A stretch of 64,000 bases of DNA from contig PCCS01000017.1 in NCBI GenBank assembly GCA_002731825.1, forward strand, positions 52,434 to 116,433. The letters run 5' to 3'. Of this stretch, positions 3,423 to 8,459 are shown in pieces (position 1 is the first letter of the stretch; each line of letters starts with the position of its first letter). This DNA comes from Myxococcales bacterium (GTDB lineage Bacteria; Myxococcota_A; Bradymonadia; UBA7976; UBA1532). Below the pieces are notes generated by a model, which was given only the letters and a program-made list of their open reading frames with translations, was not told where the DNA came from and did no database searches. The position numbers and the translations under genes were made by a program.

Positions 3423-4541
3423 CTACCCTTCCTTCAGGATGATCCAGTCACCGTATTGGTCGAGTTTATCAAATAGCGCATGTCGTCCCTCGGCTTCAGG
3501 CAAAGCCACAACCACCGGATAGGCGATCACTTGCATCAGTCGACGCCAATCAGCATGGGGGATGACCTCAGCATTTAAGACGTGCAGTAACTCTTCGAGG
3601 GGTTTCGAGCCGTCTTTCGGCACGCATCCGAACGGCACCAACCCACCCTCTTTTAGAAGAGCCAAGCTATTAAAAATTGAGACGTCTTCTCCCTGATATG
3701 TTGTCTCCCCGTCGGCGATCCCATCGATGAGAAATTCATCGTTGTAGCTGCCTATTTCCAAGTCTAATGGGATGCCCTTTAAGCGCACTCGAGCTGGGCA
3801 AAGGCGCCTGGCCCAAATGACCTCAGCTCCGCCACGTTGGCTGCGCAAACGAATTGGAACCAACTCACCTTCGCTGGCATAGTCTCCATCGGTCTCGGGG
3901 ATATCAATCCCGACTTTCTGCCATTGCAGGCGCGCGTCGCTAAATCGTCCAAGGGCTGTATAGGCGATCCCCAAGTTCCAATGACACGCTTGGTCATCGG
4001 GCCGAAATCGTAACACTGTCTCAAAGGCCGCTGCAGATGCGGCCCAATCGGTCTCAAGCTTTTTGATGACACCCAAATTAAATTGAGCACTCATATCGCC
4101 AGGTAATGCTTTAGCGGCGGTTTCAACCAATGGTGTCGCTGTGTCGATGAACTCCCATTGCAGTAACAAATGACCTAAATCGCTCTGGAAGGCTGGGCCA
4201 TGTTGTTCGGACATCGCAGAGATATGTTCCGCCACTTCTTTTGCACCGCGTCGGTCCCCGAGACCGTAGAGCACAGTCCCTATCCAATCTTCGGCGACAC
4301 GCCCCAAGCGATCGACCGGGAGGTCAGAATTCCACGCGGCCTCTAAGATGTGTAAAGAGAGCGGGTACATTCGATGCTGGCGCAAGTGGTCAAGGACTTG
4401 AAACAAGGCGGTGGCCGCTTGCCCTTCGAGCCAATCAACCAATCGTGTCCCCAGAGATGTTGCATCATCAAACTGCGGATCATAGCGTTCGATGTCCGTC
4501 TTGAGTTCAGCGGGTAATCCATCGAGTCCTTCATTCTTCAC
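3423..4541 (-). CDS. Tetratricopeptide-repeat protein
   Basis: TPR-like segments AQFNLGVIKK and ACHWNLGIAYTALGRFSDA. The GTG start overlaps the ettA stop. Confidence 0.75.
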   Translation of the reverse strand: MKNEGLDGLPAELKTDIERYDPQFDDATSLGTRLVDWLEGQAATALFQVLDHLRQHRMYPLSLHILEAAWNSDLPVDRLGRVAEDWIGTVLYGLGDRRGAKEVAEHISAMSEQHGPAFQSDLGHLLLQWEFIDTATPLVETAAKALPGDMSAQFNLGVIKKLETDWAASAAAFETVLRFRPDDQACHWNLGIAYTALGRFSDARLQWQKVGIDIPETDGDYASEGELVPIRLRSQRGGAEVIWARRLCPARVRLKGIPLDLEIGSYNDEFLIDGIADGETTYQGEDVSIFNSLALLKEGGLVPFGCVPKDGSKPLEELLHVLNAEVIPHADWRRLMQVIAYPVVVALPEAEGRHALFDKLDQYGDWIILKEG

Positions 4542-6217
4542 GAGCGGGCAAACTTCCTGTACTTGATTCGCTTAGGAATGATCGTATCTACACCAAGACG
4601 ACGTTTTTTGTCTTCTTCATAGTCTTGATAATTTCCCTCGAACCAAACGACGTCGGAATCGCCTTCGAAGGCGATGATATGGGTTGCGATTCGGTCGAGA
4701 AACCAGCGGTCATGGCTAATGATAAGCGCACACCCTGCAAAGGACAAAAGTGCCTCTTCTAAGGCGCGCAATGTGTCAACATCTAAATCGTTTGTCGGCT
4801 CATCCAGCAAGAGCACGTTGCCGCCGGATTTTAGAAGTTTGGCCAGATGTACACGGTTTCGTTCACCACCAGATAAGTACCCTACTTTTTTCTGCTGATC
4901 ACTGCCCTTGAATCCAAACGCACCCACATAGGCCCGGGAATTCATATCGTGGCGACCCATTTCGATCACCTCGGCTCCGCCCGTGATTTCTTCCCAAATA
5001 TTATGATCACCAGCCAACTCAGAACGGCTTTGATCCACGTACGCTATGTCGACCGTCTCGCCCGTTTTGATCTCACCTGAATCGGGTTGCTGCTCGCCTG
5101 TCAGCATTCGAAACAAGGTTGTTTTACCAGCGCCATTGGGTCCGATAATTCCAACGATGGCACCCGGGGGAAGCAAGAAATCTAAATCATCGACCAACAG
5201 TCGATCGCCAAACCCCTTGGTGACGGATTGAGCCTCAAAAACAGTATCACCCAAACGTGGACCTGGAGGAATTCTCAATTCTAATTTGGATCGCTGCTCT
5301 TCGTTTTGTTCATTGAGGAGTGCTTCGAAAGCACGAACACGGGCTTTACTCTTCGTCTGTCGACCTTTCGGTGATTGCCTAATCCAATCCAACTCGTCTT
5401 TTAAAGCACGCTGACGGGCAGACTCGCGTTTGTCTTTACTGGCAAGGCGGTCTTGTTTTTGGTCTAACCACGTCGAGTAATTGCCCTTCCATGGAATCCC
5501 GTGACCATTGTCGAGTTCTAAAATCCACTCAGTGACATTATCGAGGAAGTAGCGGTCGTGAGTTATGAGAACAATGGTTCCGTGGTATGTCTTGAGATGA
5601 CCTTCTAACCAAGCGACCGTTTCCGCATCAAGGTGGTTTGTGGGCTCGTCTAGGAGCAGAAGATCTGGTTTTTCTAAAAGCAATCGACAGAGAGCGACGC
5701 GTCTGCGCTCACCACCGCTTAGATGTGTAACCGCATCCTCGCCAGGCGGCAGTCGCAAGGCGTCCATCGCCACCTCGATCTGGCTGTCCAATTCCCATGC
5801 GTTGACAGCATCTATCTTGTCCTGCAAAACCCCCATTCGATCGTAGAGCTTCGCCATCTCATCATCGTCCATAGGCTCACCCATGCGTCCGGTGATTTCA
5901 TTGAACTCATCGAGAAGTGCTTGGGTTTTAGAAACACCCAATTTGACGTTCTCAAAGACCGATAAGGACTCGTCGAGTTCTGGTTCTTGAGATAAATAGC
6001 CAACGGTGTACCCCTTGGCTAACCAAGCCTCCCCGACGAAATCGGTATCCTGTCCGGCCATAATTCGAAGCAAAGTGGACTTACCTGCCCCATTGCCTCC
6101 GATGACGCCGATCTTTGCGCCAGGATAGAAGGATAATTGAATCCCTTTGAGGACTTCTTTACCGTTTAGATAGACCTTTTTGAGGTCGCGCATGTGGTAA
6201 ATAAACTGTTCAGCCAT
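4538..6217 (-). CDS. ettA: Energy-dependent translational throttle A (ABC-F ATPase)
   Basis: N-terminus MAEQFIY...LSFYPGAKIGVIG, two ABC cassettes (GAGKST and GAGKTT, LSGGER, LLLDEPTN) and the EttA-type end WFEGNYQDYEEDKKRRLG...RIKYRK. Confidence 0.97.
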   Translation of the reverse strand: MAEQFIYHMRDLKKVYLNGKEVLKGIQLSFYPGAKIGVIGGNGAGKSTLLRIMAGQDTDFVGEAWLAKGYTVGYLSQEPELDESLSVFENVKLGVSKTQALLDEFNEITGRMGEPMDDDEMAKLYDRMGVLQDKIDAVNAWELDSQIEVAMDALRLPPGEDAVTHLSGGERRRVALCRLLLEKPDLLLLDEPTNHLDAETVAWLEGHLKTYHGTIVLITHDRYFLDNVTEWILELDNGHGIPWKGNYSTWLDQKQDRLASKDKRESARQRALKDELDWIRQSPKGRQTKSKARVRAFEALLNEQNEEQRSKLELRIPPGPRLGDTVFEAQSVTKGFGDRLLVDDLDFLLPPGAIVGIIGPNGAGKTTLFRMLTGEQQPDSGEIKTGETVDIAYVDQSRSELAGDHNIWEEITGGAEVIEMGRHDMNSRAYVGAFGFKGSDQQKKVGYLSGGERNRVHLAKLLKSGGNVLLLDEPTNDLDVDTLRALEEALLSFAGCALIISHDRWFLDRIATHIIAFEGDSDVVWFEGNYQDYEEDKKRRLGVDTIIPKRIKYRKFARS

Positions 6218-6375
6218 TTCACCCTCTGTCGTGCGTTCATTGTCGTGATTGGTGCGACCCTGAAGGGGTCAAACTGCGGATACACTAGCCCCATCTAGCT
6301 CATTTACACAAGCACAACGGGCTGCTGTCGAATTCGGTGGGAAGAAAGCGCGGTGTTCGAACTCAAACAAGCGGA

Positions 6376-6507
6376 TCAGGTCGATGAAAGGCGACCATTT
6401 CGCTTCTTCTTAAGTGCGCTTGCATTACGCAACCGTGATTTTCGTAGTTTGGCCTTACGAGCTGCTTTACGACGGGCTGTGTTGCGGCGCTTATTAGCTT
6501 GTTTCAT
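6376..6507 (-). CDS. Unannotated 43-aa highly basic protein MKQANKRRNTARRKAARKAKLRKSRLRNASALKKKRNGRLSST
   Basis: Translated by hand because it is below the ORF-track cutoff. AAGGAG lies 6 nt before the ATG. 19 of 43 residues are K/R, none is D/E. A promoter-like sequence lies upstream. Confidence 0.8.
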   Translation of the reverse strand: MKQANKRRNTARRKAARKAKLRKSRLRNASALKKKRNGRLSST

Positions 6508-6541
6508 GGCCGACTCCTTTTAATCTATCAGCGTTCACTCA

Positions 6542-6605
6542 GGGCGCGCATCTTGTCTGGACTTGCTTCAGAGATCAAGTCTATCCGACCAATTTTGTTT
6601 TTTTT
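6542..6605 (-). promoter_or_regulatory. Putative sigma70 promoter with A-tract UP element and GC-rich discriminator
   Basis: Minus strand: A-tract (6591-6605), TTGATC (6578-6573), 17-nt spacer, CAAGAT (6555-6550), then GCGCGCCC. Confidence 0.55.
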
Positions 6606-6644
6606 CTGTAAAAACCAGCCTGGTTTCACCCGATTTATCTGAAC

Positions 6645-8459
6645 TCATGGTTTCTTTTTGGCGAGATAGACCCGATCGATTCGATCCGCATAGCGTGCAA
6701 CAACCCGATCGCGCCGAATCTTGAGTGAGGGTGTAAGCAGTGACTCTTGTGTGGAAAACGCCTCGGCGATCAACTCGAAGTCGCGGACGGTCTCATGCTT
6801 TGCAAGTCTCTGATTAACCCGATTCACCGACTCGTCTATAATTCGTCTAATTTTGGGTTCTCTAAGTAAGGATTCTGGATCTCGAAAGAACAGCTTCTTT
6901 TTTTTAGCCCACGCTTCAAGTTCGGTCATCGCCGGAACGATCAACGCAATGCAATACGGCCGATTATCGCCGATCAGGCACGCCTGCTCGATCATGGGCT
7001 CCAAGCGCAATAAGCTCTCAACTCGTTGCGGAGCGACGTAGCGACCCCCCGAATCCTTAAATAGATCTTTTTTCCGATCTGTAATCCAGACGAAACCATC
7101 GCGATCAACCCGACCGATATCACCGGTGGCCAACCAACCGTCGTCCGATAGCACAGCTCGAGTGATGGATGGCTGTTTCCAATACCCCTGCATCACACTC
7201 GGTGCCTTCACCATAATTTCGCCATCGTGTGCAATGCGGACCCGGACATTATCTAATGCTTGTCCAACGCTACCAAAGCGATAACTTTCCGGGCGATTGA
7301 CGCTCACGACAGGGGATGTTTCTGTCAATCCATATCCCTCGAGGATCAAGACACCGGAGGAAAAGAAGAATTCGGCGATTTCGGGAGCGAGCGCTGCCCC
7401 ACCGGAGACTAAAATCCTGAGACGGCCACCCAAACGGTCATGCAGGTCTCGGAAAATTTTGTCTCTGAGCCAAGCATATTGCCAATTGAGTGTTTTACCC
7501 GCTTGCCGACCGGCTTGGTGTTTTCGGCTTAAGCGGGCCCCGACAGACAGGGCTGCTCCCATGGCAAGGCGCTTAGCCGGCGTGAATTGCCTCCGGACTG
7601 TCTGCGCGCGTCGGTACACCTTTTCATAGAGCCGTGGCACGCCGGTCATTAACGTCGGGCGAACCTCTTCCAAATCTTCCAGAAGGCGATCCATTCCGCA
7701 TGAATAATAGATGGTCGCCCCACCGAAAAAGCATGGCATATAGTACCCTGCCATCCGCTCGAAGCTATGGCTTAAAGGCAAAAACGAGAGTAAGACGTCC
7801 TCGTGACTGATGGAAATCGCACGAAGGCAGGCCTCACAATTACTGGTCATGTTTTCGTGGGAGATCATGACGCCTTTGGGCTGACCTGTGGTCCCGGAGG
7901 TGTAGATCAGGGTCATTAAATCGCTGGGCTTGATCCCATCAATTCGACCTGGAATCGAGCTCAAATGCGTCGAGGTGCGTCCCAGGTTTTCTAGCTTGAG
8001 CAGGCTGAGATGTTCAGTGTCTAGGCCATCGAGAATTTTGACAGCCGTATGAAATGCAAACAAATGGTGGGTCTCTGGAAACCGACCCATTTCGCCGGCG
8101 ACTCGCTCCAAGATATCAGCCTCGCCGATGAACACAGCTTTGACACCCGAATCCGATAAAATCCAGTCGATATCTTCCATGGAGGCGGTCTCAGAGATGG
8201 CCACCGTAGCAGCGCCAATAGACAGAATTGCCAAATCAGCAATCACCCACTCAACGCTGCTCTGACCAATGATGGCCACGCGCTCACCAGATGCGATGCC
8301 AAGGTCTAAAAGTCCAGCTGCCGCAGCATCCACACGCTCATTGATCTGAAGCCACGTCAAGGGCCGCCAGTGCCTATCACGACGACTGTAGATCATGGGC
8401 CTGCTGTGCAGCTTTGCGACCTGCTCTCGAAAAACTGCTGGAATGGTCCGTGTCGTCAT
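6645..8459 (-). CDS. Long-chain fatty-acid--CoA ligase (AMP-dependent synthetase)
   Basis: YTSGTTGQPKG, EGYGLTET, ATGDIG and DRKKDL motifs. Start moved to MTTRTIP, which has GAGG upstream. Confidence 0.92.
   Translation of the reverse strand: MTTRTIPAVFREQVAKLHSRPMIYSRRDRHWRPLTWLQINERVDAAAAGLLDLGIASGERVAIIGQSSVEWVIADLAILSIGAATVAISETASMEDIDWILSDSGVKAVFIGEADILERVAGEMGRFPETHHLFAFHTAVKILDGLDTEHLSLLKLENLGRTSTHLSSIPGRIDGIKPSDLMTLIYTSGTTGQPKGVMISHENMTSNCEACLRAISISHEDVLLSFLPLSHSFERMAGYYMPCFFGGATIYYSCGMDRLLEDLEEVRPTLMTGVPRLYEKVYRRAQTVRRQFTPAKRLAMGAALSVGARLSRKHQAGRQAGKTLNWQYAWLRDKIFRDLHDRLGGRLRILVSGGAALAPEIAEFFFSSGVLILEGYGLTETSPVVSVNRPESYRFGSVGQALDNVRVRIAHDGEIMVKAPSVMQGYWKQPSITRAVLSDDGWLATGDIGRVDRDGFVWITDRKKDLFKDSGGRYVAPQRVESLLRLEPMIEQACLIGDNRPYCIALIVPAMTELEAWAKKKKLFFRDPESLLREPKIRRIIDESVNRVNQRLAKHETVRDFELIAEAFSTQESLLTPSLKIRRDRVVARYADRIDRVYLAKKKP

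Follow-up and report, generated by a model that had tools for sequence, protein, structure and literature searches.

The question raised by this locus is whether a very short open reading frame (ORF) upstream of ettA, in a stretch of DNA analysed over its whole length of 64,000 nt (the window), is a gene and, if it is, what its product might do. A sequence-only reading had claimed an ultra-basic ORF of 43 amino acids here. The ORF is present (Table 1) and its translation, MKQANKRRNTARRKAARKAKLRKSRLRNASALKKKRNGRLSST, agrees letter for letter with the peptide of that reading, having 9 K and 10 R (K+R = 44%) and no residue of D, E, F, W, Y or Cys. On the evidence set out below it is a real, independently transcribed gene and a member of an undescribed family, whose proteins are ~38-53 aa long, extremely basic and restricted to some uncultured Myxococcota lineages.

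Table 1. Coordinates, in the window, of the small gene, its putative expression signals and its downstream neighbour.
Feature	Position	Strand	Remarks
CDS of the 43-aa basic protein	6376..6507	minus	ATG 6505-6507, stop TGA 6376-6378; ORF listing and translation
Shine-Dalgarno site AAGGAG	6514..6519	minus	6 nt before the ATG
GC-rich discriminator GCGCGCCC	6542..6549	minus	just downstream of the -10 element
-10 element CAAGAT (family consensus CAnAAT)	6550..6555	minus	sequence check and relatives
-35 element TTGATC	6573..6578	minus	17-nt spacer to the -10 element; sequence check and relatives
A-tract AAAAAAAACAAAATT, possible UP-like element	6591..6605	minus	upstream of the -35 element, directly after the small hairpin found behind the acyl-CoA synthetase gene
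ettA (ABC-F translation factor), downstream neighbour	4538..6217	minus	ATG 6215-6217; context only

The first search for relatives, in which the peptide was compared with six-frame translations of 41 related genomes, returned strong matches in most genomes of the family and the order. The ATG is conserved across these relatives and the in-frame sequence upstream of it is unrelated, while at the other end a C-terminus of the form ...LKKKxNGRL(S/T)S(T/S) is conserved and is followed by the stop. With a profile built from 25 sequences (A1) and a threshold of E <= 0.001 for the order-wide count, exactly one match per genome was found in 28 of the 31 genomes of the order and in 14 of the 15 that are of high quality. 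The three without a match were G009 (93% complete), G013 (70%) and G019 (72%). An earlier weak match in G009 was rejected as a low-complexity artefact at a contig end, so that the gene is either absent from G009 or was not assembled. The gene is nearly universal and single-copy in its own order.

Analysis of selection was based on 35 loci with 23 distinct coding sequences. Between the window and its closest relative (L001 and L002) 15 of 132 nt differ without a single amino acid change, 13 of the differences falling at third codon positions and two at synonymous first positions; the same 15 differences would alter between 4 and 14 residues in each of the other five frames. Across all 253 pairs of distinct coding sequences the median pS was 0.548 and the median pN 0.266, ratios that are less telling in the high-GC genomes because codon bias depresses pS there. 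The stop codon is TGA in 21 of the 23 sequences. On the opposite strand, the antisense ORF 6353..6523 is not conserved in relatives. The gene is clearly conserved, with purifying selection acting on its protein sequence, and the search across Myxococcota that the sequence-only reading had proposed as a check on its frame has come out in its favour, both in the number of genomes of the order that carry the small ORF and in the synonymous-only changes against the closest relative. Individual basic residues are kept as well. K20 and K35 are always Lys in 28 of 28 distinct proteins, from genomes of 44% to 74% GC, and K14, K23, R12 and R27 show the same constancy in 27 of 28, despite GC contents that would favour Arg. 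Lys and Arg are thus not interchangeable at these positions, which points to a defined binding site rather than to charge alone.

The distribution of the gene is narrow within its class and patchy in the phylum. Of 113 genomes of the class 28 carry it, all in its own order, and the A1 search found it in none of the 82 genomes outside the order, several of which consist of a single contig. Across the phylum A1 matched 25 of 401 genomes, six of them in other parts of the phylum, and the six outlying ORFs, of which MKTAKKPSKTSRRNAAHKHKLAKKNRRLAGLLKKKHNGGHSSW is one, have in common the core [KR]xxARRKAAxKAKxxKxxxRxxxxL[KR]K[KR]xNGRL. A wider profile, A2, raised the count to 60 of 401 genomes, 19 in the order and 41 elsewhere; 22 of the latter matched at E < 1e-5 and 16 at between 1e-4 and 1e-3, so that some of these 16 may be chance matches. 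The A2 matches cluster in a handful of families, f51 and f32 among them. The sister families of the class gave no match, and neither did families f11 (0/29), f17 (0/29) and f26 (0/19); in the large, probably cultured, Myxococcota families among the 401 genomes A2 did not find the gene.

Searches of the public sequence collections gave a similar picture. A collection of species representatives yielded 16 loci, all from metagenome-assembled genomes (MAGs) and labelled Myxococcota, Myxococcales, Bradymonadia or Deltaproteobacteria, with three labelled only 'bacterium'. Against 1.84 billion protein representatives A1, searched without a limit on length with fused forms in mind, found 19 clusters, all of 35-81 aa. 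Against 5.8 billion proteins A2 gave 124 matches, and the 120 listed are of 36-93 aa. Among the matches listed every name given was 'hypothetical protein', none had a Pfam domain and all were from MAGs where the source was labelled. As every labelled carrier is a MAG, the function will be hard to test soon. Some public MAG records already include homologues under the name 'hypothetical protein', and the family is unnamed rather than wholly unseen.

Evidence on the expression of the gene comes chiefly from its upstream region. Every signal that the sequence-only reading had listed there (the AAGGAG site, TTGATC-N17-CAAGAT, the discriminator and the A-tract) lay at the position it had given when the minus strand was checked. 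A GGAG core is found, by eye, in the same place in most of the printed upstream regions of relatives, and with it, 22-40 nt ahead of the ATG, TTGATC-N17-CAnAAT and then GCGCGSCC recur in upstream regions that are otherwise unalignable between genera. Patterns were counted in 28 distinct upstream regions and in 500 mononucleotide shuffles. The strict pattern TTGA[CT]N-N17-CANNAT[GC]C occurred in 17 of the 28 (shuffles: mean 0.00, maximum 1), a looser pattern with a G/C-rich discriminator in 23 (shuffle mean 0.05) and the loosest in 25 (shuffle mean 0.37), although the regions are related, the counts are not independent trials and the point lies in the contrast with unconserved flanks. A scan of 6100-6800 for sigma-70 consensus promoters found no promoter-like site; it missed this one because CAAGAT agrees with TATAAT at no more than 3 of the 6 positions, and the case for a promoter therefore rests on conservation and not on closeness to the consensus. 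The small gene thus has a conserved sigma-70-type promoter and a Shine-Dalgarno site, and its transcription would start near 6540-6544.

How far this promoter is of the ribosomal style that had been proposed is less certain. A GCGCGSCC-like discriminator follows the -10 element in genomes of family f1 from 52% to 74% GC, and this part of the claim stood; the A/T-rich tract upstream of the -35 element, however, is confined to the four low-GC genomes of the genus, in which it is A-rich (L001 and L002) or T-rich (L003 and L004). The sister family f2 has a near-consensus promoter (TTGACA-N17-TATAAG, TGTAAG or TTTAAA) without a GC-rich discriminator; two of its three genomes are of 44-48% GC, and for the third a value of 73% comes from a short locus. 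In E. coli a GC-rich discriminator is the mark of promoters under stringent control, and by analogy with that other phylum the promoter of the small gene might be called ribosomal-style and stringently controlled. A search of its own genome found the strict composite motif twice, here and once before an unrelated 412-aa ORF, and the motif is thus essentially unique there; a looser pattern occurred 240 times, mostly by chance. On the minus strand the small palindrome AAACCAG-G-CTGGTTT (6610-6629), with T residues after it, lies between the stop of the acyl-CoA synthetase gene (6645) and the A-tract; it may be a weak terminator of the acyl-CoA synthetase gene and was not listed by a terminator scan.

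RNA libraries also contain the locus, the comparison having drawn on contigs of four runs. In one marine metatranscriptome study, and in a second library whose RNA origin is a guess, contigs span 6229-6508 and 6179-6539; they differ from the window at one letter at most, and at none in the pieces over the ORF. Such contigs give no levels or ends, and DNA carry-over is possible. They reach 6539 and none extends beyond, which is a few bases from the expected start and a weak hint. Parts of ettA are covered by contigs in other runs. The upstream acyl-CoA synthetase gene had no contig cover in the four runs, which proves nothing. One contig (run X1) links 6479 on one strand with 6539 on the other, in all likelihood an artefact of assembly or of fold-back in the library.

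Codon usage was compared by a synonymous log-ratio between 23 ribosomal protein genes (with EF-G added in G000) and a background set, the small gene contributing 42 codons. The probability that a background draw scores at least as high was 0.027 in G000, 0.001 in G026 and 0.003 in G004, so that the small gene was ribosomal-protein-like in three of the five genomes, and was 0.067 in G001 and 0.155 in G016, in which it was intermediate; in the four relatives among the five the background sets are tiny, of 3-6 ORFs. AlphaFold2 predicted a helix over residues 2-31 and a short C-terminal hairpin around the invariant N-G turn (mean pLDDT 80.6), although for a peptide such as this the predicted helix-hairpin fold is a weak statement.

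Comparison with described families placed the protein in none of them. Pfam and NCBIfam, searched with the 43-aa protein and the 25 members, gave only stray sub-threshold matches (NOA36, AsnRS_N and GraF, E > 0.04). Against PDB chains the best match of profile A1 had an E value of 6.6 (fragments of eL38 and bL19) and A2 had no match at E <= 10; the PDB was taken to include the published mycobacterial ribosome structures. Foldseek found nothing in the PDB at E <= 0.001 with the predicted model. In the ESM Atlas the nearest clusters were unnamed and the named leads, DUF6800 (0.81) and COX24_C (0.77), were within the range of chance. Both leads were rejected. In five carrier genomes DUF6800 (PF20607) had only two sub-threshold matches (E 0.6 and 1.4), both in long unrelated ORFs away from the small gene, and bS22/mS38 (COX24_C, PF08213) had none at E <= 10 in the six-frame translations of these genomes and none in the protein and its 25 members. 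No publication describing the family was found in a literature search at the level of titles and abstracts, nor, at the level of titles, a Myxococcota ribosome structure. The suggestion that the protein is something undescribed holds in the sense that no family model, solved structure or publication covering it was found.

The small ribosomal proteins were compared individually, with Pfam scans at E <= 10. bL34 resembles the small protein in its length of ~44 aa, MK start, extreme basicity and G-R-x-L-like C-terminus, but the bL34 model (PF00468) did not match the small protein and a canonical bL34 is encoded elsewhere in five of five genomes, including G000 (C6:174888-175016, E 2.4e-22). bL36 (PF00444) likewise failed to match and is present in canonical form elsewhere in five of five genomes. 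bL35 (PF01632) failed to match and is present in four of five, the miss being G000 (81.6% complete). The earlier impression that the peptide does not look like bL34, bL35 or bL36 was accordingly borne out. bS21 (PF01165) gave no match and was found in 103 of 113 genomes of the class and in 26 of the 30 genomes of the order besides G000. Since canonical bS21, bL34, bL35 and bL36 are present, the small protein is an addition to these and not the replacement of a lost ribosomal protein. One irregularity was seen among the ribosomal protein genes themselves. In the S10 cluster at locus L052 (G000, contig C40, 4635-5580), rplD (L4) comes immediately after rpsJ (S10), and rplC (L3) is missing from between them. 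The L3 model found no match in G000, a genome 81.6% complete, and in four relatives it matched elsewhere in the genome over model positions ~204-290 only.

The reading put forward here, tentatively and as somewhat short of an even chance, is by analogy that the gene encodes a lineage-specific small ribosomal protein or one that binds the ribosome or rRNA. The small protein would be abundant and would bind structured RNA, most likely on or in the ribosome. A long amphipathic basic helix at the N-terminus (residues ~2-31) would lie against rRNA and the conserved C-terminal LKKKxNGRL turn would close a specific contact, in a manner analogous to bL37, bS22 or bTHX. Ribosomal-protein-like codons in three of five genomes, the fixed Lys and Arg positions and the strong conserved Shine-Dalgarno site and promoter are hints that fit a small abundant RNA-binding protein. 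The narrower form of this reading is held a little more doubtfully: the family may be a new ribosomal one, a helix-plus-turn peptide of ~40 aa in an rRNA pocket, patchily gained or retained in several uncultured Myxococcota lineages.

Several results count against a place in the ribosome. No homologue was found among ribosome structures when PDB chains were searched with A1 and A2, there are no adjoining translation genes, the promoter motif is not shared with other genes of the genome and the distribution is patchy; as the gene was not found in the sister orders or in the large families, a ribosomal protein of this kind would be dispensable for Myxococcota ribosomes in general. A comparison of the 16S and 23S rRNA of two carriers (G016 and G026) with 3-4 non-carriers (G044, G073, G035 and G031) revealed no clear difference: short indels in variable hairpins were all that separated the two groups, and phylogeny is a confounder there.

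A role of another kind is unlikely, though it deserves serious consideration. The protein might regulate or form part of a protein complex, act as an RNA chaperone or be the partner of another ribonucleoprotein, with a charge that is incidental to ribosome biology. The neighbours of the gene are variable, its distribution in the phylum is patchy and its relatives are unnamed or called 'hypothetical protein', all of which would be in keeping with such a role, and none of the analyses is specific for the ribosome. A protein that is 44% Lys and Arg, with no acidic, aromatic or Cys residue, however, would offer little surface to other proteins, save for nucleic acids or very acidic partners, and codon usage together with the strong Shine-Dalgarno site and promoter point to abundance.

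A peptide of the nucleoid, condensing or coating DNA in the manner of a protamine, is improbable. Its extreme charge and long predicted helix, and a gene that stands alone without translation genes as neighbours, could be accounted for in this way. The fixation of Lys or Arg at most of the basic columns, already described, speaks against it, as do the fixed non-basic NG turn at the C-terminus and the lack of repeats, which are unlike what is seen in low-complexity binders that depend on charge only.

The position of the gene beside ettA bears on an alternative that is more improbable again, namely that the protein is a non-stoichiometric accessory of translation, linked to EttA and the E site or to hibernation or rescue, and binds the ribosome according to its state. 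Here the two genes are co-oriented on the minus strand with an intergenic distance of 158 nt to the ATG of ettA, exactly as had been noted, and the association exists to that extent; elsewhere it amounts only to partial synteny. In 7 genomes ettA is the next gene downstream and has the same orientation; it lies 0.9-6.7 kb downstream on the same strand in 5 more and ~5 kb away in divergent orientation in 4 more. It was not found in the flanks fetched (~8 kb where the contig allows) at 2 of 2 loci of f2 and 4 further loci of f1, nor within ~3-6 kb on each side of 6 of 6 loci from distant lineages. In addition, ettA appears to have a promoter-like motif of its own in the 158-nt spacer, conserved in the genus. 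The linkage looks like partial, decaying inherited gene order, which argues against a functional tie.

Some features of the neighbourhood may be recorded. The promoter-like sequence in the spacer is TTGTGT (6306-6311), N18 and TAGTGT (6282-6287) on the minus strand and is conserved in L001-L003; a perfect 5-bp hairpin, GACCC-TTCA-GGGTC, lies at 6256-6270 (minus) in the presumed ettA 5' leader. At other loci the neighbours are heterogeneous and mostly metabolic, among them glyoxalase II, cobalamin adenosyltransferase, QueG, a sulfatase and ATP synthase beta, and neither a ribosomal protein gene nor an rRNA gene adjoins the small gene at any of the loci examined. In f1 the loci L023-L025, L032, L044, L045 and L049 share a loose neighbourhood of glyoxalase II, cobalamin adenosyltransferase, a MoaC-GNAT fusion and a large PPC-domain protein, with ettA at a variable distance, and in L023, L024 and L044 cobalamin adenosyltransferase begins a few nt downstream of the small gene. 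In both f2 genomes examined QueG (epoxyqueuosine reductase, a tRNA modification enzyme), and not ettA, is the adjacent gene, directly upstream (L040 6573-7832 and L041 8401-9717). A leader or attenuator peptide of ettA, of the type known for ABC-F genes, was considered and rejected, as ettA adjoins in only 7 genomes, other genes follow elsewhere and the peptide is strongly constrained.

That there is no functional protein at all, the signal being instead an ettA leader or attenuator, a conserved non-coding RNA or a chance ORF, is very improbable and already largely refuted, for although the ORF is short and the antisense frames are often open (in 15-16 of the 23 distinct coding sequences, with stops in 7-8), the closest pair differs synonymously only, the protein is kept across genomes of 44-74% GC while the downstream genes differ, Rfam found nothing meaningful in 6150-6700 (one sub-threshold miRNA match, E 0.73) and the gene is single-copy and near-universal in the order.

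If the ribosomal reading is true, the composition of the ribosome would differ between sister orders of one class. The discovery of bS22, of bL37 and of bTHX was in each case an accident of structural work, and the small gene, a clean candidate for a new ribosomal mini-protein, suggests a route to such proteins from sequence: a conserved single-copy micro-ORF, fixed Lys and Arg, codons like those of ribosomal protein genes and a strong promoter of its own. Such a route could be used even for clades known only from metagenomes. Should the role prove to be another, this would still be a well-defined, selected and apparently well-expressed family of small proteins, annotated only as 'hypothetical protein', and a family model would be worth making so that gene callers no longer overlook the gene. 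Tiny lineage-specific ribosomal proteins are reported to lie near functional centres and to be able to alter the access of antibiotics (PMC10081302).

The closest parallels are with ribosomal proteins of similar size. The likeness to bS22/mS38 is that both are short helical peptides rich in Lys and Arg. bTHX of Thermus is a 26-aa protein of the small subunit, a lineage-specific mini-protein that fills a cavity in the rRNA, and the protein described here would be of the same kind, differing in that it has no match in Pfam or NCBIfam and that its ribosomal location is only hypothesised. bL37, a protein of the large subunit, is described as having 24 aa with an N-terminal helix and a C-terminal loop, as restricted to the Actinobacteria and as discovered only by cryo-EM (PMC5876184). 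The Myxococcota protein shares no sequence similarity with bL37 in the profile search of the PDB, is nearly twice as long, belongs to another phylum and is known here from genes alone. Both, however, are tiny, very basic, restricted to a lineage and missed or left unnamed in annotation, and going by that description (PMC5876184) and by the AlphaFold2 model both have an N-terminal helix and then a non-helical C-terminal piece. Tiny basic lineage-specific proteins are a known kind, to which this gene family, itself undescribed, adds a member.
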